Positions 6,282 through 58,852 of a stretch of DNA of 64,000 nt are shown piece after piece. Source of the stretch: an uncultured Candidatus Actinomarina sp. (GTDB lineage: Bacteria; Actinomycetota; Acidimicrobiia; Actinomarinales; Actinomarinaceae); NCBI GenBank assembly GCA_902566515.1, contig CACFIX010000001.1, forward strand, positions 32,220 to 96,219. The letters run 5' to 3'. The notes beneath the pieces were generated by a model that saw nothing but the letters and a program-made list of their open reading frames with translations, did not search any database and was not told where the DNA came from. Both the position numbers and the translations under genes were made by a program. Within the stretch, counting starts at the first letter, position 1, and each line of letters opens with the position of its first letter.

Positions 6282-6339
6282 GAAACAATAATAGTTTGAT
6301 ATTTTTTTTAGGTGGGTGCCTCATAAAGAGGCACCCGAG

Positions 6340-6678
6340 TTTTGTGAAACTATAAGCCGGATTCTGTATACGCAATGCGCATGATAATCATCCATCTTGT
6401 ATATTTGTTACCAAATATATCTAGCTACTTACCCGCAATTATTAACCGAGCAGATTAATTGCTTCTTAGTATTGCTCCTAGAGGGGTTTGCAAGCTAGTT
6501 TAATTACTTAAACTACTGGTGGTCTCTTACACCACCTTTTCACCCTTACTTGCGTTAACAAGCGGTATATTTTCTGTTGCACTTTCCGTCAATTACTTGC
6601 CTGGGAGTTACCCAGCTCTATGCTCTACGGAGTCCGGACTTTCCTCGATAAATCGCGATTATCCATCTCACACTTCTT
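6340..6678 (-). ncRNA. rnpB: RNase P RNA, bacterial type A
   Basis: Minus strand contains GAGGAAAGUCCGGACUC (P4/CR-I), GGGUGAAAAGGUGGUGUAAGAGACCACCAG (P10-12 region), ACAGAAUCCGGCUUAUAGUUUCAC (CR-V plus 3' P1 strand). The region is GC-rich in an AT-rich genome; boundaries approximate. Confidence 0.8.
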
Positions 6679-6694
6679 ATTTTAATTGCATATA

Positions 6695-7198
6695 TCATTC
6701 ATTTGAATAAGAATTTATTATTTCTTCTAAATCACTCAAAGAAAGAGGACCAATATATTTTTTTACTATTTTATTATTTAAAATTATATGCGTTTCAGGA
6801 ACACCAAAAACCCCTGAATAGATAGCCAGCTTGCTTTCAGTATCGATTGCGTAAATTATATCTCCTCTTCCGTATTCATTAAGAAAATCTATTGAGTTCT
6901 CAATAGAATCTTGGAAAGATACAAGTATAACTTTATCAGTCAAGCCTCTTGTCTTTGATAATTCAATTAAGTATTGATGTTCTTCAATACATTCAAGGCA
7001 CCATGATGCCCAATAATTAATTATCACATAGCTTGATGTATCAATTATTAAACTTTCATTTGTTTCAAGTGTTATAAGATTGTTAAAAATACTTTGATCA
7101 ATTTCAATCTTCGAATCTTCAGTATCTACGGAGCATGAGATAATTAAAAAAAGTAATAAAACAAATCTAACTTTCATAAATTTCCAAAATCTCTTCAA
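6695..7198 (-). CDS. ccmG: Thioredoxin-fold thiol:disulfide oxidoreductase (CcmG/TlpA/ResA-like)
   Basis: N-terminal signal/TM segment then WASWCLEC (CxxC) in a thioredoxin-like fold; last gene of the ccm string. Confidence 0.6.
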   Translation of the reverse strand: MKRFWKFMKVRFVLLLFLIISCSVDTEDSKIEIDQSIFNNLITLETNESLIIDTSSYVIINYWASWCLECIEEHQYLIELSKTRGLTDKVILVSFQDSIENSIDFLNEYGRGDIIYAIDTESKLAIYSGVFGVPETHIILNNKIVKKYIGPLSLSDLEEIINSYSNE

Positions 7199-7703
7199 TA
7201 ATTGACATATCTTCTTCCGACAATGAAGGATTATTACGTAATGAGTTCAAAATAAGTATTCCCTCATCTCTTGTATCTGTTTGTTGAATTAAAATTATTC
7301 CTTTATAAGTTTCAGCTAATAATGACTTTGGGGATATTCTTAGTGCTTCATTTATATAATTTAAAGATGTATTTATATCTCCAGACTCATATACCATCCA
7401 ACCAATTTGAGATAATGACAGACTTTTTAAATCTATGTCATTAGAATTTTCAGCAACATACATGAAGTGAGGTAAGGCACTCGAATAATCAAACGCTTCA
7501 AAATACCTATTAGCTAGTGCTATTCTCATAGGCATTATGTCGGGATTCAGTTCAATTACTTTTTCCATTTCTTGATTTGAAACTTCATCCAAGTTTGTAG
7601 ATCGATTTGATGAATTCTCAGTATTGTTTTGTAGATTAACAAATAGAAAAATTGGAAATAAAATAATAAAAATTGATGAATAAAACCATTTATTTTTTAA
7701 CAT
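7167..7703 (-). CDS. TPR-repeat protein, CcmI/CycH-like
   Basis: N-terminal TM segment then TPR-like helical repeats; position between ccmH and ccmG. Confidence 0.4.
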   Translation of the reverse strand: MLKNKWFYSSIFIILFPIFLFVNLQNNTENSSNRSTNLDEVSNQEMEKVIELNPDIMPMRIALANRYFEAFDYSSALPHFMYVAENSNDIDLKSLSLSQIGWMVYESGDINTSLNYINEALRISPKSLLAETYKGIILIQQTDTRDEGILILNSLRNNPSLSEEDMSIIEEILEIYES

Positions 7704-8049
7704 ATAATTTCCTCAAAAAAATGTACATGAATATCAAAACTAAAAATAATGGAATCAAAACAATTTCATAATTTCTTTCAATAGGATTTGTAATTATTTT
7801 CTCACCATATCTAGTGACCCAAAACTTATAAATATCATTATCTGTCATATTGTTGTTTATTTGTTCTTGAAGAATAGTTCTCATGTCGTCTGCATATTCA
7901 GAAGGAGAATCATAAATAGTCTCACCTTGACATACAGGGCATAATAAGGACTTACTCCATTCATCAAATCTTGATTCATCATCTGGAAGAAATAATGGAA
8001 CTAATAACAAAATAGATATTAGAGCAAATGTTAAGTACTTTTTATACAC
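7690..8049 (-). CDS. ccmH: Cytochrome c-type biogenesis protein CcmH
   Basis: LLCPVCQGETIYDSPSEYADDMR...WVTRYGEKI closely resembles CcmH LRCPxCQ...ERYG; C-terminal TM helix. Confidence 0.75.
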   Translation of the reverse strand: MYKKYLTFALISILLLVPLFLPDDESRFDEWSKSLLCPVCQGETIYDSPSEYADDMRTILQEQINNNMTDNDIYKFWVTRYGEKIITNPIERNYEIVLIPLFLVLIFMYIFLRKLYVKK

Positions 8050-9931
8050 GTTTTTTTAACCTTGGAATAAATGAAATCGAGGATATAAATAAACCAATCC
8101 ACATAATTAAAATACCGTAGTTGTTCCTAACTATTAATTTATAACTATCTTCATCTATAAATTTTACAGTTATATAGATATCGTTAACCAATGATCTAAA
8201 TACAGCAGGAGAACTAATAGCTTGTTGTGAAGAATTTCTAAATATATTTAGAGAAGTATATTTTGTAGTAATCTCATTTGATATTGGGAGTTTGATAATT
8301 GTTTTTTCTGGTTTATTTTCTTCTATAGAGTCATATACGAAAAAAGATGTGTTATTAAATTCAAATTCTTGAAAAGAATTGATTTCCTTTTCAGTTGAGT
8401 AGCTTTGTGTTACATTTAAAATAATACCAAGTGCGAAGACAGCTATACCCAAATGAGCTATTTGTCCTGTCCAGTATGTTTTATTAGTGTTTGTAATTCT
8501 TATTCTTTTAACCATATTTTTAATTGTTAAAAGAATAAGAATTACAGATGCAGCAACGGTAACTACTAAAAAATAGCTATTGTTCAAATTTATTAAGAAA
8601 AATATAGCTATTACTAGTGATAAATTTAGTAAATTAGAGTTTTCAGTAAACCAAGAATTTAAATTTATATTTTTTACTGTAAGCTTTATAGAGAAAATCA
8701 TTAGGCCTAGTAAAACTAATAACATTGGGCCGACGAGTATATCGTAATAAGCTCTACCAATAGTAATTTGTCTGTCATAGATGGTTTCATAAAATAATGG
8801 GAATATTGTTCCAATAAATATTACTAAAGCTGAAGAAAACAAGATGATATTATTCAAAACAAAAAAACCTGACTTTCCAAACCAATTAGTAATTTTTTTA
8901 GAATCAGAAAAGTATTCAATATTCTTTGAACCAATAAATATAAATATCAAACTAAAAATCGTAAGACCAAATAATAGATAAGTACCGATATTTCCATTTG
9001 AAAAAGCATGAACTGATATTAAAACACCAGATCTTGTAACAAATGTTCCAAAAATTGTAGAAAGAAACATTAGTCCAACGAGTATGTAGTTCCAATTTAA
9101 TAATGTATTGCTAGATTTTTGAATTTTTGACGAGTGTAAAAATGCAGTTGCAAGCAGCCATGGGATAAATGATACGTTCTCAACAGGATCCCAAGCCCAG
9201 TAACCGCCCCAACCTAGAACTTCATATGACCATGCTGCGCCCAAAGTTATACCAATTGTTAAGAATAACCAAGGAACATAGGTTGTTCTTTCAGCTACCT
9301 CAATCCAGTCATCTGATTGGTCTCTTTTGAACAATCGACTAGTAGCGGCAACAAAAGGAAGCGTCATACCTACATAACCTATATAAAGCATTGGAGGGTG
9401 AATGGCCATCAAGGGGTGATTTTGTAATAAAGGATTTGGTCCTCTTCCTAAATCACTCATAAGGGTATTTTGAAATGGAATTAAGGTTGATTTGTTGCAA
9501 CCAACTATTGCTAATTCAATACATCCCGCAAAAGGAGAGGAACTGAAAACTGTATAACCAACAAAAAATATAGTTATAAATGAAAATATTTTTATGTCTA
9601 GGTTTGAATTTTCAATTTTATAGTACTTTAGATAAAAAAACATAAATATGCTCAAACACAAATTCCACAATAAAATTGAACCATCAAGAGAACCCCACAA
9701 GGATGCAAACTTATAAAGCGGGGGAGTAGAAACTGCTGAGTAATTGGCAATATAGGACACAGAAAAGTCATTTAAGAACAAGCCTATTTCCAATAAGCAA
9801 AATAAGAAAATTTGTAAAAATAGATTTATTCGAACAAGCAAATGAACTCTATATTTGCTTTCAGTAAAAAACAGATATATTAAAACCGAAAAGCTTAACC
9901 AACTAATTAAAATACCAAGATTGTATATCAT
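8042..9931 (-). CDS. ccmF: Cytochrome c-type biogenesis protein CcmF (haem lyase subunit)
   Basis: 629 aa polytopic protein with WWD-domain signature WGGYWAWDPVENVSFIPWL. Confidence 0.85.
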   Translation of the reverse strand: MIYNLGILISWLSFSVLIYLFFTESKYRVHLLVRINLFLQIFLFCLLEIGLFLNDFSVSYIANYSAVSTPPLYKFASLWGSLDGSILLWNLCLSIFMFFYLKYYKIENSNLDIKIFSFITIFFVGYTVFSSSPFAGCIELAIVGCNKSTLIPFQNTLMSDLGRGPNPLLQNHPLMAIHPPMLYIGYVGMTLPFVAATSRLFKRDQSDDWIEVAERTTYVPWLFLTIGITLGAAWSYEVLGWGGYWAWDPVENVSFIPWLLATAFLHSSKIQKSSNTLLNWNYILVGLMFLSTIFGTFVTRSGVLISVHAFSNGNIGTYLLFGLTIFSLIFIFIGSKNIEYFSDSKKITNWFGKSGFFVLNNIILFSSALVIFIGTIFPLFYETIYDRQITIGRAYYDILVGPMLLVLLGLMIFSIKLTVKNINLNSWFTENSNLLNLSLVIAIFFLINLNNSYFLVVTVAASVILILLTIKNMVKRIRITNTNKTYWTGQIAHLGIAVFALGIILNVTQSYSTEKEINSFQEFEFNNTSFFVYDSIEENKPEKTIIKLPISNEITTKYTSLNIFRNSSQQAISSPAVFRSLVNDIYITVKFIDEDSYKLIVRNNYGILIMWIGLFISSISFIPRLKKRV

Positions 9932-10329
9932 TTTGAGTAATTTTCTACATTATATGTTTCGCCATCGCTTGAAACATACTCATTATCATGCTTAACTAAC
10001 ATGTCGTCAGCAAGGAATAACTTATCATCAAATACTCCATCAAGAATTACACCCATATTTTCCTGAAAAAGTTCAGGAACAAATCCATCAAATACAATAT
10101 CAATATCTTTATTCCCATCAGTTATTGTAAAAAGTGTAAATTCTCCATCTTTAGTGACAGAATCTTCTACAACAAATCCTCCAAGTTTTATTCTCTCTTC
10201 ATTTGATATTTCTATTCCCAAAGTCTCTGAGGTCGTGTAATAGTAAATAGTATTTCTAGATGCAATTACAGAACTTGCATAAATAATCAAGCCAATGCCC
10301 AGTAGGACAATTAATAGATTTTTTTTCAC
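9928..10329 (-). CDS. ccmE: Haem chaperone CcmE
   Basis: N-terminal TM anchor, OB-fold region, C-terminal LVKHDNEY (haem-binding His context). Confidence 0.75.
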   Translation of the reverse strand: MKKNLLIVLLGIGLIIYASSVIASRNTIYYYTTSETLGIEISNEERIKLGGFVVEDSVTKDGEFTLFTITDGNKDIDIVFDGFVPELFQENMGVILDGVFDDKLFLADDMLVKHDNEYVSSDGETYNVENYSK

Positions 10330-10334
10330 TTTAC

Positions 10335-11003
10335 TTAAATTTTAGCTCTTGATTGAGGATTTAAATAATCTTCCCACGATATATCATTTGATATTCTGAA
10401 TCTTTTAGTAAGAAAAATATGAACAAGTGTTACCAGTAAAACACTAATTAGTAGAGTTACAAGGATATCACTAGACATAGGTGCATCACCTGAAGCTACA
10501 GTTTCCTGACTTAATATGCTTGCTTGTTGGTGAACAGATCTCCACCATATAACACTGAAATGCAAAATTGGAATTTGTATAACTCCAAAGATTCCAATAA
10601 TTGATGAATTTTTTGCAGTTTTAGCTAAATCTTTATTGAATTGTCTTGAGGCTATGTAACCCAAATAAACTAGTAAAAGTATTGCTGTTAAATTAAGCCT
10701 TGCATCGCCCCATACCCACCATGTTCCCCAGGTGAGCTTTCCCCAATATGATCCGGAAAGTAAAGTAACAATGGTAAAAATTACGCCAGATTTTGCATTA
10801 GCAACTGCAAGTGAATCGTATTTTTCTTTTTTGGTAAAGAAATATAAAACCGAGTACAAAAAAGTAAGCGAGTAGCCTAAATATGCAACCCAAACTGTAG
10901 GTACGTGAACGTATAACAATTTTGATGAAATACCTTGGGTGACATCGTAAGGCCCAAAAGACGCTACGGCGACCCAAACCAATAGAGGTCCATATAGCAT
11001 CAT
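10335..11003 (-). CDS. ccmC: Haem exporter protein CcmC
   Basis: WGKLTWGTWWVWGDARLN tryptophan-rich WWD motif, 6 TM. Confidence 0.8.
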   Translation of the reverse strand: MMLYGPLLVWVAVASFGPYDVTQGISSKLLYVHVPTVWVAYLGYSLTFLYSVLYFFTKKEKYDSLAVANAKSGVIFTIVTLLSGSYWGKLTWGTWWVWGDARLNLTAILLLVYLGYIASRQFNKDLAKTAKNSSIIGIFGVIQIPILHFSVIWWRSVHQQASILSQETVASGDAPMSSDILVTLLISVLLVTLVHIFLTKRFRISNDISWEDYLNPQSRAKI

Positions 11004-11635
11004 TATGATTTTCTTAAATAAAAATTAGTGAAAGAGTAAATGACCATAGTTATTCCTAAAAACATCAATATATAAATATTACTTATTTCTTGATTTACAC
11101 CTAACCAGAGGGGTGCGATTAAAATTGCGAAACCAATATAAATAGGAACAATCAATGTAAATTGCACAAATCTATTACTGAAAGAAGTAAAAATTTGGAA
11201 AAATAAATTTATCATGATTGTGTTCAAGCAAAAAAATAAAACTGATAAACATATATGAAATAAAGATGAATTTAACGAAGTGTTTGTAAAACCTGAAAAG
11301 AGAATTAACAAAATAATTATTTGTGGATAAAAAATTATTAATTCTGAGGATGTCTTGCTATAAAAATAATCTACTTTCTTTATAGAACCAAAATTTAGTT
11401 CTTTTATTAATTTCTGCTCATTTAGGGGGTTTCTGATTGAAAAAAGTGTTGTAAATATAATTAAAAATAAAAGCTCAACAATCAAAAATATATCATTTTC
11501 AACACGAAATCTATTTTCTGACAAAATGGGAAAAACTATTATTAAAACGCACATTGTGGGAGTAATTAGAAATAAAGATGTATTATTTCTAAATTCCATA
11601 TTTAGTTCTTTTTTTATAATGTATTTTTTAATCAT
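11003..11635 (-). CDS. Putative CcmB-like ABC-2 permease (divergent)
   Basis: 210 aa, about 6 TM, located between ccmA and ccmC; canonical CcmB motif not recognised. Confidence 0.4.
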   Translation of the reverse strand: MIKKYIIKKELNMEFRNNTSLFLITPTMCVLIIVFPILSENRFRVENDIFLIVELLFLIIFTTLFSIRNPLNEQKLIKELNFGSIKKVDYFYSKTSSELIIFYPQIIILLILFSGFTNTSLNSSLFHICLSVLFFCLNTIMINLFFQIFTSFSNRFVQFTLIVPIYIGFAILIAPLWLGVNQEISNIYILMFLGITMVIYSFTNFYLRKS

Positions 11636-12221
11636 TTAAATTAAATGACCTTTCAATTGACGTAAATGCACCAATACTTTCTTGACTAGACAAAATGGAA
11701 GTATTACCTTCCTTTTCTCTTTTTTTAATAAGATTTAGTAATAGGTCAACTCCGTTCTCATCAAGATATACTCTGGGCTCATCAATACAAAGCACCTTTG
11801 GGTTTTTAATGTCTGCAATTGCAATTTCACTTCTCTTAACCATTCCACTTGAAAAATCTCTAACTAGATCACTCTTAAAACTTTCTAGTTCATATTTATT
11901 AAGAACATTCGATATCATGTTTTCATTAATATTGTCGTTAAATAAAAAATATTTAATATTTTCCAGCAAAGAAAGTTCGGGCATTAGAGATGGGGAAGAG
12001 CCAATTTCCATTAATGAAGTGTCTTTTCTGCGTATATTAGAGTTAAAAGTGTTTCCTATAAAATTATTACTTATACACATGATTAGCGTAGTTTTCCCCG
12101 AACCATTTTTTCCTGTAATTTCATAATTTTTTGAAAAGTTTAAAGAAATTTCTAGATTTTTAATTACAAGTTGATTGCCGTAACCGAGCGTTAGATTGTC
12201 AGATTCAAAAAATAAACTCAT
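11628..12221 (-). CDS. ccmA: ABC transporter ATP-binding protein CcmA
   Basis: Walker A GKNGSGKTTL, signature FSSGMVKR, Walker B LCIDEP; about 200 aa as for CcmA. Confidence 0.7.
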   Translation of the reverse strand: MSLFFESDNLTLGYGNQLVIKNLEISLNFSKNYEITGKNGSGKTTLIMCISNNFIGNTFNSNIRRKDTSLMEIGSSPSLMPELSLLENIKYFLFNDNINENMISNVLNKYELESFKSDLVRDFSSGMVKRSEIAIADIKNPKVLCIDEPRVYLDENGVDLLLNLIKKREKEGNTSILSSQESIGAFTSIERSFNLND

Positions 12222-13732
12222 AATACTATTGTATTAGCTTCTGATTTTCTTAGGTAACGCAAAATTATTTGAAGTTCACTTAAGAAATGTTGAAAAGAAT
12301 ATTCCTCATTCAAATTATTGATTTCAAATAAATTATTAGAATCGTTAAAACTTTCTACAAAAATTTGTTTTCCTTGAATCTTAATTCCATGATTTGATAG
12401 CTTTGAATTAAGGTCTTCATTATTTTGTAGTATTTTGTTAAATAAATCTGAAAATTCTTGGTGTTCCACAAGTATGGATAACAATAATTTGTATTTTTGA
12501 GCATTTTCAAAGTCTAAATTTTTAGAGTAATTCTTAATTAATTTTTTTATTTCTGAAATATTTATATCTAGATTCTCAAAATAATTTTTAAACTCTTCAT
12601 TTTTTTGGATTAAGTAATTTTCTAAACTGAAATTTTCTATACAAGCGCATTGAGAATTTAATAATAATGAAATATCACATATCTCTTTTCTTGCATTATT
12701 TTTCTTGCACTTTATTAATTGAAATATTTCTTCTATAGACCTTTTATAATTAACTGCTTTTGAGTAACTTAGAAAAGGTCCAAATTTGTAAAGTGTATTT
12801 TTTGTATTTTCAATTTTAGAAATTTCAAGTCTAAGTTTATTATTTTTTAACTTAACCCAATAAATATTTTTTGGTACTTTACCGCTTCTATTGTAAATTG
12901 GTTTGAAAAAATTAATTATTCTATGCTCTGCAATGAGTGCTATTAATTCATTATCCAACTCAATAAAATTTAAAGTATTTGAATTAGTTACTATTTTATT
13001 TGACTTATAACTTCTCGCATAACTTAGGTGTGATCCAATTCTATTTCTTAGATTGTTTGATTTTCCTACATATTGAATTTTGTTATTTTGCAAAAAACAA
13101 TAAATACCAATTGAATTAGGTATATCTTCATAGGAAAATTTAACTTTTAATTCATCATCAACTTCGTTTAAAAAAGAATTTAAATGTGAAATATTTTTTT
13201 TATTTGTAATTCTTTCATCACTAGCAAGATTGTTAAATACTTCATAAGTTGTTAGAACATCGGCTTTTGCGTTATGGTCATTCTTATTAGTTGTCTTAAA
13301 GTAACGACTTAATGTAGATAATTTATGATTTTTAACTTTATTCCTCAACAGAGCTCTTGATAACTTTAACGTATCAATATTTTCGTTAGCAATATTTTGA
13401 AACCCATTATTTATTAGGTCATAATTTAAAAAAGATAAATCGAATTTTAAATTATGACCTATAACAACAGAATCACTTATAAAAGTTTTAATATTTTCAA
13501 TTTCCTGATCAATTGTGGGGGAGGAATTGACATGCCATTGATATATCCCTGTTAAATTTGAAATGAATAATGGAATTTCAATTTCTGGATTAAATTTTGA
13601 ATGATATTCTTCTAGAACTTCATTGTTGTAAACTTTCAGCATATAAAGTTCAATAATTTTGTCAGTATTAGCTTTTATTCCAGTAGTTTCAATATCTAAA
13701 ACAACAATATTTTTATTCTTTATAAATTCCAA
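12218..13732 (-). CDS. DnaQ-family 3'-5' exonuclease fused to a GIY-YIG nuclease domain, with an uncharacterised C-terminal region
   Basis: N-terminal VLDIETTG (DEDD exo I motif); mid GIYCF...YVGKSNNLRNRIGSH...ELDNELIALIAEHRIINFFKPIYN (GIY-YIG with Arg/His/Glu/Asn); about 220 aa C-terminal region of unknown fold. Confidence 0.65.
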   Translation of the reverse strand: MEFIKNKNIVVLDIETTGIKANTDKIIELYMLKVYNNEVLEEYHSKFNPEIEIPLFISNLTGIYQWHVNSSPTIDQEIENIKTFISDSVVIGHNLKFDLSFLNYDLINNGFQNIANENIDTLKLSRALLRNKVKNHKLSTLSRYFKTTNKNDHNAKADVLTTYEVFNNLASDERITNKKNISHLNSFLNEVDDELKVKFSYEDIPNSIGIYCFLQNNKIQYVGKSNNLRNRIGSHLSYARSYKSNKIVTNSNTLNFIELDNELIALIAEHRIINFFKPIYNRSGKVPKNIYWVKLKNNKLRLEISKIENTKNTLYKFGPFLSYSKAVNYKRSIEEIFQLIKCKKNNARKEICDISLLLNSQCACIENFSLENYLIQKNEEFKNYFENLDINISEIKKLIKNYSKNLDFENAQKYKLLLSILVEHQEFSDLFNKILQNNEDLNSKLSNHGIKIQGKQIFVESFNDSNNLFEINNLNEEYSFQHFLSELQIILRYLRKSEANTIVL

Positions 13733-58144: not shown

Positions 58145-58852
58145 ATGGACCTTAATTTTGGAATTGCATTTTTTTTTGGAGTCATATCATTTTTTTCACC
58201 TTGCGTCTTACCTCTAGTGCCTGGTTATCTTGCTATATTTTCATTAAATAAAAATGATCAAATTTCACGTATAATTGGATCATTACAGTTCGTACTAGGT
58301 TTCTCTTTTGTCTTTGTTAGTTTGGGTGCTCTGGCAACTACTCTAGGATCTTTTTTTAGTAGAAATTCCACAATTTTGTCACAAATTAGTGGATTCATAA
58401 TTATATTTTTTGGTTTAATACTTTTAATTCCTAAATTAAATACTCGATATTTTTATGGTTCTAATTTATTAAATATTGATAAATTCAATAAATCCAAAAA
58501 CTTACTTATGGGATTTACTTTTGGATTCGGCTTTACTCCTTGTATTGGTCCAGTTCTTGGAGCTCTATTAACACTTTCTTCAAAGGCAGAAACAATAAAT
58601 AGTGGAGTATTTTATTTAATTATGTTTTCTTTAGGTATGGGAATACCATTTCTTTCTATTGCTATTCTTTCAAATCGAATCAATCTTAAAAATAGGTTAT
58701 TCGTAAATTTTCAAAAATTCTCAAGTAAATTTTCAGGACTTGTTTTAATTGGAATAGGTTCACTTATTTATACAGACAAAATGTATATTTTGGCTTCTTT
58801 CTTTCAAGAGATACTGTATTTATTAAATCTTGATTGGTTGAGTACAATCTAG
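58145..58852 (+). CDS. ccdA: Cytochrome c-type biogenesis thiol-reductant transporter CcdA (DsbD family)
   Basis: FFSPCVLPLVPGYL and second Cys motif FTPCIGPVLGA, 6 TM. Confidence 0.8.
   Translation: MDLNFGIAFFFGVISFFSPCVLPLVPGYLAIFSLNKNDQISRIIGSLQFVLGFSFVFVSLGALATTLGSFFSRNSTILSQISGFIIIFFGLILLIPKLNTRYFYGSNLLNIDKFNKSKNLLMGFTFGFGFTPCIGPVLGALLTLSSKAETINSGVFYLIMFSLGMGIPFLSIAILSNRINLKNRLFVNFQKFSSKFSGLVLIGIGSLIYTDKMYILASFFQEILYLLNLDWLSTI

Follow-up and report, generated by a model that had tools for sequence, protein, structure and literature searches.

A 64-kb stretch from the genome of an uncultured Candidatus Actinomarina species (in the following called the window) carries, at positions 6695-12221 of the minus strand, a cluster of genes for cytochrome c maturation (Ccm) by System I. 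This locus raises the questions of whether its actinobacterial host inherited or acquired the pathway, and whether the operon can function with the release module encoded there, in which CcmD is missing and CcmA and CcmB are altered. We regard it as probable that the marine 'Ca. Actinomarinales' inherited this System I operon vertically, that it is functional, and that it represents a streamlined form of an operon found throughout the class Acidimicrobiia. The pathway itself is well known, and the locus is a lineage-specific reduced variant of it. No paper discussing Ccm in Actinomarinales or Acidimicrobiia was found in the literature; public annotations already call these proteins CcmF.

Gene content of the ccm operon

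A previous annotation made from the letters of the window alone (first-pass annotation) had described eight co-directional, overlapping ccm genes. All eight open reading frames (ORFs) were recovered on the minus strand, and according to the ORF listing neighbouring genes overlap by 1-32 nt or, at the ccmC-ccmE junction, are separated by a gap of 5 nt. The proposed gene identities were borne out by Pfam and NCBIfam matches, with the genes of the permease and of the TPR protein as special cases that are treated below. A scan for promoters and terminators was uninformative (43 sites versus 54 expected).

The catalytic and ligand residues of CcmC, CcmE, CcmF, CcmH and CcmG are all kept. CcmC (10335-11003), the WWD protein responsible for loading CcmE with haem, matched PF01578 with 105 bits and TIGR01191 with 147 bits, is 84% identical to its counterpart in the related locus L001, and retains H33, the WWD motif (W87-R102) and H158. 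The membrane-anchored haem chaperone CcmE (9928-10329; PF03100, NF009727 with 100 bits) comprises the haem-binding HxxxY motif as H114 and Y118 (VKHDNEY) in columns conserved at 90-96%. For CcmF (8042-9931), the holocytochrome c synthase subunit, matches to PF01578, PF16327 and TIGR00353 (292 bits) were obtained. Its WWD motif (241-252), its CcmF_C domain and the histidines 178, 266, 308 and 493 are conserved, the first three of these histidines being invariant in 81 sequences and H493 in 69 of 69 aligned ones. CcmH (7690-8049; PF03918, 71.5 bits), the thiol-reducing partner of CcmF, carries its CxxC motif as C37-P-V-C40, and both Cys columns are invariant. The thioredoxin-like reductase CcmG (ccmG/dsbE, 6695-7198) showed its best match to TIGR00385 (dsbE) at 81.5 bits, which is under the 123-bit cut-off of that model; W66-C67-x-x-C70 and P134-E135, belonging to the WCxxC and GVxGxPE motifs, are conserved, as is E73.

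One deviation was noticed in CcmC. Position 71 is Lys in the window and in the Actinomarinales loci L001 and L002, while Glu occupies it in 91% of the other loci. K71 is the only strongly conserved charged residue of CcmC that is altered, and the alteration occurs in a lineage without CcmD.

Since the gene calls of close relatives comprise 160-162 amino acids (aa), the true start of ccmG is likely the ATG at 7177, giving a protein of 160 aa. Read from this ATG, CcmG opens with MKVRFVLLLFLIISC, and the lipobox-like IISC in it resembles a lipoprotein signal with a lipobox Cys. Such a Cys would fit an anchoring of CcmG on the outer face of a monoderm membrane.

The gene between ccmH and ccmG (7167-7703) encodes a CcmI-like, membrane-anchored TPR protein, a probable apocytochrome chaperone. 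Only weak, generic TPR matches were obtained for it, and TIGR03142, the model for the N-terminus of CcmI, was not matched. Its Acidimicrobiia orthologues are longer by about 85 aa, and the window protein has, as judged by eye, a single N-terminal hydrophobic segment. The orthologue in locus L007 weakly matches TIGR03142 (E=0.012), and in the loci ordered ccmF-H-TPR-G the gene keeps its place between ccmH and ccmG. The label 'CcmI-like' is based on this position and on the architecture of the protein.

Apart from the cluster, the first-pass annotation had placed a ccdA gene at 58145-58852, and this assignment was confirmed on the plus strand by a match to PF02683 (DsbD_TM, 61.7 bits). CcdA is a membrane electron conduit and would supply reductant to CcmG. 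Its neighbours are an ORF that by eye resembles endonuclease III and another ORF of 189 aa; no ORF big enough for ResB/ResC adjoins ccdA, the neighbours being judged by eye and by size without a ResB/CcsA scan. The predicted gene set is complete for haem loading (CcmC to CcmE), for ligation (CcmF/H) and for thiol reduction (CcmG, with CcdA encoded elsewhere).

Selection on the operon was assessed in comparisons with two relatives. The ratio of nonsynonymous to synonymous substitutions (dN/dS) was 0.03-0.23 for all eight ccm genes and 0.24 for the neighbouring exonuclease gene.

Origin of the operon

The first-pass annotation had stated that the phylum typically uses System II and had concluded that a System I cluster is unexpected here and may reflect a lineage-specific acquisition. 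System II is indeed used by model Actinomycetes such as Corynebacterium (PMC9145763), which favours the assumption that an actinobacterium obtained the cluster by horizontal transfer. In order to judge this assumption, its basis has to be divided: the statement holds for model Actinomycetes and fails for the class Acidimicrobiia.

CcmF was compared with one genome per prokaryotic species, the best 80 loci were examined, and the eight window proteins were mapped onto all 80. The top matches were two Actinomarinales with 61-64% identity. The next matches, with 30-36% identity, were mostly labelled Acidimicrobiia, Acidimicrobiales, Microthrixaceae, Iamia, Poriferisodalis or Actinomycetota, and about 45 of the best 80 loci belong to Acidimicrobiia/Actinomycetota. 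That most of the closest CcmF relatives after the Actinomarinales carry such labels contradicts an acquisition. The same holds true for the gene order. Within Acidimicrobiia two types of System I operon were found, one with the order F-G-H and one with the order ccmA-B-C-(D)-E-F-H-TPR-G. The latter is the order of the window; it is shared by a large subset of the Acidimicrobiia/Actinomycetota loci, and the nine-gene order is identical in many Acidimicrobiia.

The genomic context points in the same direction. The actinobacterial host proposed by the first-pass annotation was corroborated by synteny with Actinomarinales single-cell genomes: over its first 19 kb, the window is collinear, gene for gene and with 40-87% amino-acid identity, with the genomes of 'OCS155 cluster bacterium AG-333-G23' and 'Ca. 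Actinomarina sp. AG-313-C18'. The same layout is present in closer relatives from Tara and other marine metagenomes. Housekeeping genes adjoin the cluster (NIF3, RNase H, TauE, an F420-type luciferase-like monooxygenase, a SpoU methylase, a nitroreductase, LeuB and LeuA), and this syntenic context was the same at every Actinomarinales locus examined. The G+C content (GC) is about 30% throughout the window without a compositional step at the ccm cluster, and no mobile-element genes flank it. 'Ca. Actinomarinales' have been described as having genomes of about 1.1 Mb with about 32.5% GC, median spacers of 2 bp and preserved synteny (PMC7771536), and the features of the window fit this description.

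On the basis of best matches, gene order and syntenic context, vertical inheritance within Acidimicrobiia is concluded. A phylogeny of CcmF, as proposed in the first-pass annotation, was calculated as a crude neighbour-joining (NJ) tree. It did not settle the placement of the Actinomarinales, whose CcmF lies on a long branch near the root, and this position could be taken in favour of an acquisition. A further point of this kind is that the ccmF-H-TPR-G type is shared by Tersicoccus, Haloechinothrix and Amycolatopsis, so that some transfer within the phylum is plausible. Recent horizontal transfer was nevertheless rejected, since gene order, relatives, synteny and GC contradict it. Altogether, horizontal acquisition by an actinobacterium whose phylum normally uses System II is largely refuted already, and we consider it very unlikely. 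System I is common in the closest relatives of the window lineage, many of which have the same gene order, and the cluster can no longer be called unexpected. The general statement that Actinobacteria use System II fails for Acidimicrobiia, since among the genomes sampled from this class System I is the norm.

Three observations were made alongside this comparison. The two Acidimicrobiia operon types (ccmF-H-TPR-G and ccmF-G-H; loci L003-L080) form separate CcmF clades. The type of the window also occurs in three Actinomycetes genera, represented by Tersicoccus phoenicis, Haloechinothrix and Amycolatopsis ultiminotia, which suggests either transfer within the phylum or patchy retention. Finally, locus L011, labelled as uncultured Gemmatimonadales, has a ccm cluster near-identical to that of L010, including CcmB and CcmD, and lies inside the Acidimicrobiia clade of the tree; its label is probably a binning or labelling error.

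Absence of CcmD

The first-pass annotation had detected no ccmD in the cluster, and the junction leaves no room for one: the spacer at 10330-10334, where relatives have ccmD, comprises 5 nt. At the other loci, 100-180 nt separate ccmC from ccmE and contain an ORF of 34-55 aa with one hydrophobic helix and an Arg-rich tail, following roughly the pattern W.WV..GY..TYG.L..Y...L.RR. Two of these ORFs weakly match the Pfam CcmD model (E=0.007 and 0.04). Since this model fails to recognise most CcmD peptides of Acidimicrobiia, a custom hidden Markov model (HMM) was built from 29 junction ORFs and cross-validated on loci unseen by the model. In a positive control with held-out loci, it recovered 30 junction peptides, which came from many phyla and had E-values between 4e-13 and 3e-4. 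Accordingly, about 60 of the 62 other loci with a ccmC gene possess ccmD.

A six-frame search with the HMM gave a best E of 3 for the 64-kb window, L001 and L002 and a best E of 1.5 for L082, L083 and L084, both of which are noise. The gene is lacking in all six Actinomarinales loci (the window, L001, L002, L082, L083 and L084), in which ccmC and ccmE either leave a gap of no more than 7 nt or share an overlap of 8 nt. Judged from these junctions, the loss of ccmD is real at the operon level, is specific to this order and predates the split between the lineages of the window and of L084.

CcmD is small and poorly conserved, with 37 to 100 aa (PMC12077264). This property, the blindness of the Pfam model for most Acidimicrobiia peptides and the coverage of 64 kb out of a genome of roughly 1.1 Mb would all be in line with a ccmD encoded elsewhere in the genome, or with one too short or too divergent for recognition. 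However, nearly all other loci, which come from many phyla, have ccmD between ccmC and ccmE, the HMM that found the 30 held-out peptides gave nothing in any frame of the window and the five further Actinomarinales loci, and moving a gene of about 110 nt would be unparsimonious in genomes with 2-bp median spacers and conserved synteny (PMC7771536). A relocated or unrecognised ccmD is therefore judged rather unlikely, although it deserves to be taken seriously.

In E. coli, the loss of CcmD lowers the amount of holoCcmE (PMC12077264). CcmD binds only to CcmC and is thought to aid in release or resetting (PMC9616876, PMC12077264).

The probable CcmB permease

The gene between ccmA and ccmC (11003-11635), whose ends overlap with both neighbours, encodes an ABC-2-type permease of 210 aa. 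It had been described before as a non-canonical CcmB candidate, and this description proved correct, as no Pfam or NCBIfam family was matched. Even at E<=10 no family was found, so that PF03379 was not directly matched, while CcmB of other loci passes PF03379 with 47-67 bits. Searches with phmmer and with iterated HMMs starting from the window permease reached only the orthologues in L001 and L002. Within 1.84 billion proteins the family has 27 representatives, with orthologues solely in Actinomarinales-type sequences.

The scoring of this ORF against CcmB models that the first-pass annotation had suggested failed directly, the match of the window permease being 13 bits, and a match was obtained via a bridging family member, P0257. 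This protein matches the family profile over its full length (E=4.8e-22) and is encoded between ccmA and ccmC in L084, in the same synteny. Against the CcmB HMM it reached 44 bits (E=1e-11 among 10,700 ORFs), far above every non-CcmB ORF, and hhalign gave 95.5%. With a shallow Actinomarinales profile, hhalign returned a probability of 1.8% for CcmB; the comparison became informative once P0257 was added, and a window-led profile including P0257 gave 84% (E=7e-6), its alignment to CcmB being collinear from the K-[DE]-L-x-x-E-x-R motif that both share near the N-terminus. Another member of the family, P0241, matches PF01061 (ABC2_membrane).

Structure prediction yielded a compatible fold. The AlphaFold (AF2) model from the diverse alignment A3 (predicted local distance difference test, pLDDT, 74.7; predicted template modelling score, pTM, 0.74) comprises an N-terminal helix, six long helices and one short helix (73-79), while the model from the shallow alignment A1 (pLDDT 43) was unusable. 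In Foldseek the model resembles ABCG/ABC-2 transmembrane domains, with TM-scores of 0.57-0.64 for ABCG25 and 0.45 for ABCG16 and with weak E-values. A profile search of PDB sequences with alignment A2 found nothing.

Based on these data it has to be considered whether an unrelated ABC-2 permease has displaced CcmB together with its own ATPase. The missing Pfam and NCBIfam matches and the empty PDB search would agree with a displacement, as would the best Foldseek matches, which are ABCG, ABCH, NosY and KpsM and not CcmB; in addition, the CcmA of the window stays under the cut-offs of the ccmA models and scores about equally on other ABC models. These points are outweighed by P0257, which combines membership in the same family with a ccmA-ccmB-ccmC context and a CcmB match above all non-CcmB ORFs, and by the collinear alignment. 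Moreover, the size and helix count of the permease fit CcmB, and E. coli CcmA is among the PDB matches of the ATPase. Displacement thus appears quite unlikely. With a dN/dS of 0.03-0.07, ccmB is as constrained as ccmC and ccmF, and from the sequence comparisons we conclude that the permease most probably represents a true, strongly diverged CcmB, neither a decaying gene nor a displacement.

Two further proteins of the family set are chimeric. P0248 combines the first ~90 residues of a CcmB-like protein with the C-terminal part of CcmA, and P0242 an unrelated N-terminus with the C-terminal half of CcmB. Both are likely metagenome assembly or gene-call artefacts.

The CcmA ATPase

CcmA (11628-12221), the ABC ATPase of the holoCcmE release module, matched PF00005, and the specific CcmA models scored 70-72 bits (TIGR01189 72), below their cut-offs. 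Its PDB matches include the E. coli CcmA chains 7f02_A and 8ce1_a. Walker A, the signature SSGMVKR, Walker B (IDEP, D147-E148) and the D-loop are intact. The catalytic set is incomplete in one residue, the H-loop His, which is replaced by Gln in the window (Q180), L001, L002, L082 and L083 and by Leu in L084. In comparison, His was found in 46 of 46 CcmA from outside the Actinomarinales that have a residue at this column. Furthermore, the protein is shortened; it has lost ~10 residues ahead of the Q-loop region as well as its C-terminal tail.

Q180 aligns opposite H184 of the solved E. coli CcmA (7f02_A). In E. coli, the H184A variant shows low ATPase activity and 0% cytochrome c, while holoCcmE is still formed (PMC9616876). 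A second residue, S75, aligns to H81 of E. coli, for which the Ala mutant is tolerated. With a dN/dS of 0.11-0.14, ccmA is still constrained.

Function of the release module

Based on established knowledge of System I, above all from work on E. coli (PMC9616876, PMC12077264), the operon would work as follows. CcmC would bind haem via its WWD domain and H33/H158 and hand it to CcmE, which would attach it at H114. HoloCcmE would then be released by CcmA2B2 using ATP, and CcmF, CcmH and the CcmI-like TPR protein would ligate the haem to CxxCH apocytochromes, the cysteines of which would be held reduced by CcmG, fed by CcdA. On the stem of the Actinomarinales, ccmD would have been deleted, CcmB would have diverged past model recognition, CcmA would have been shortened and lost its H-loop His, and the CcmI-like protein would have been truncated.

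Since the H-loop His, essential in E. coli, and CcmD are gone and CcmB is extremely diverged, CcmAB could be a decaying relic, with the operon working without it or degenerating as a whole. This is contradicted by the dN/dS values of ccmB and ccmA in the two comparisons, which are like those of ccmC and ccmF, by the intact reading frames in six loci from several genera, and by the intact Walker A, Walker B and signature motifs. A pseudogenised operon was rejected on account of the intact frames and the low dN/dS, and we regard a relic CcmAB as extremely improbable. In view of the strong purifying selection on the remodelled genes, the release of holoCcmE most likely still depends on CcmAB, presumably with altered kinetics or coupling. 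The combination of CcmD loss, H-loop His loss and CcmB acceleration on one branch, followed by purifying selection, suggests a co-adapted and simplified release module rather than a loss of function.

Several points speak against the interpretation as a functional, inherited operon and have to be set beside it. The NJ tree puts the Actinomarinales on a long unresolved branch and not clearly inside the Acidimicrobiia clade. The direct match between the window permease and CcmB is at noise level, and E. coli CcmB is not among the 50 Foldseek matches shown. No ORF within the window carries a CxxCH motif, i.e. no c-type cytochrome substrate is encoded there. A relocated ccmD or a co-existing System II may lie beyond the 64 kb covered. 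Finally, by analogy with E. coli, where H184A abolishes cytochrome c and holoCcmE is diminished when CcmD is lost, there is no guarantee that the release cycle is canonical here.

A more far-reaching version of the functional interpretation would be a naturally minimal System I, with no CcmD genome-wide, a CcmA2B2 without the switch His, and a holoCcmE release unlike the ATP-hydrolysis/CcmD cycle of E. coli. We put this forward tentatively and hold it to be possible rather than probable. Release would then be driven, for example, by ATP binding, or by a slow hydrolysis tolerating Gln or Leu, with a co-evolved CcmB-CcmC interface.

As found in the Actinomarinales, the operon is a naturally reduced form that lacks CcmD and CcmA H184, which are essential or important in E. 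coli, and its CcmB is extremely diverged; all of it is nevertheless under purifying selection. If functional, the operon marks dispensable parts of the CcmABCD release complex and offers a compact system for mechanistic work; if the minimal version were true, it would be a natural experiment on these parts in one of the smallest free-living cells. The practical stakes are modest, and the simplification is consistent with genome streamlining.

Comparison with known systems

Compared to the System I of E. coli and other proteobacteria, the window shows the same WWD motif and two His in CcmC, HxxxY in CcmE, WWD motif and four His in CcmF, CxxC in CcmH and WCxxC in CcmG, as well as an ABC ATPase and a six-helix permease upstream of ccmC and the order A-B-C-E-F. 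In contrast to E. coli, CcmD is absent, CcmB is not recognised by PF03379, and CcmA carries Q180 in place of the essential H184 and ~10 residues fewer before the Q-loop region. Furthermore, the CcmI-like TPR protein is encoded by a separate short gene, ccmG stands last, and the host is a monoderm actinobacterium in which likely CcdA and not DsbD serves as reductant conduit.

A second related system is the F-H-TPR-G type of Acidimicrobiia (e.g. L004, L007-L012, L016; also Tersicoccus L019), whose loci are the best CcmF matches outside the Actinomarinales (30-36% identity) and which shares gene content and order. Its CcmB already lacks the proteobacterial 'DGSLE'-type motif. Unlike the window, these loci keep a CcmD of 34-45 aa, a CcmB passing PF03379, the H-loop His of CcmA and a TPR protein of 260-280 aa.

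The System I of plant mitochondria (CCMA, B, C, E, F, H) operates although no CcmD has been identified in it (PMC10879542), which shows that CcmD is dispensable in some lineages. By analogy, we infer that it may be dispensable here as well. The plant system differs in being eukaryotic and organellar, with a split CcmF, no CcmG/CcmI and an independent reduction. A variant System I of Archaea and some Bacteria, which is also reduced, comprises a CcmE with CxxxY and no CcmH according to Allen et al. 2006, as cited in PMC4429474. An assignment of the window to this variant was rejected, since its CcmE has H114xxxY118 and CcmH is present.

Neighbouring genes

Downstream of the operon, a bacterial class A RNase P RNA (272 bits) was found at 6337-6674 on the minus strand, 20 nt after the stop codon of ccmG. 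This RNA is separated by a G+C-rich hairpin (6313-6337) from the start of the luciferase-like monooxygenase gene.

Upstream of ccmA, a gene on the minus strand (12218-13732) encodes a protein of 504 aa in which a DEDDh exonuclease is fused to a GIY-YIG domain and a UVR motif. The fusion is present in the window, L082 and L083, while an exonuclease alone of 165-166 aa was found in L001 (5196-5693), L002 and L084 (6903-7403). Judged from these sequences, the gene upstream of ccmA has gained or lost a domain within the order.

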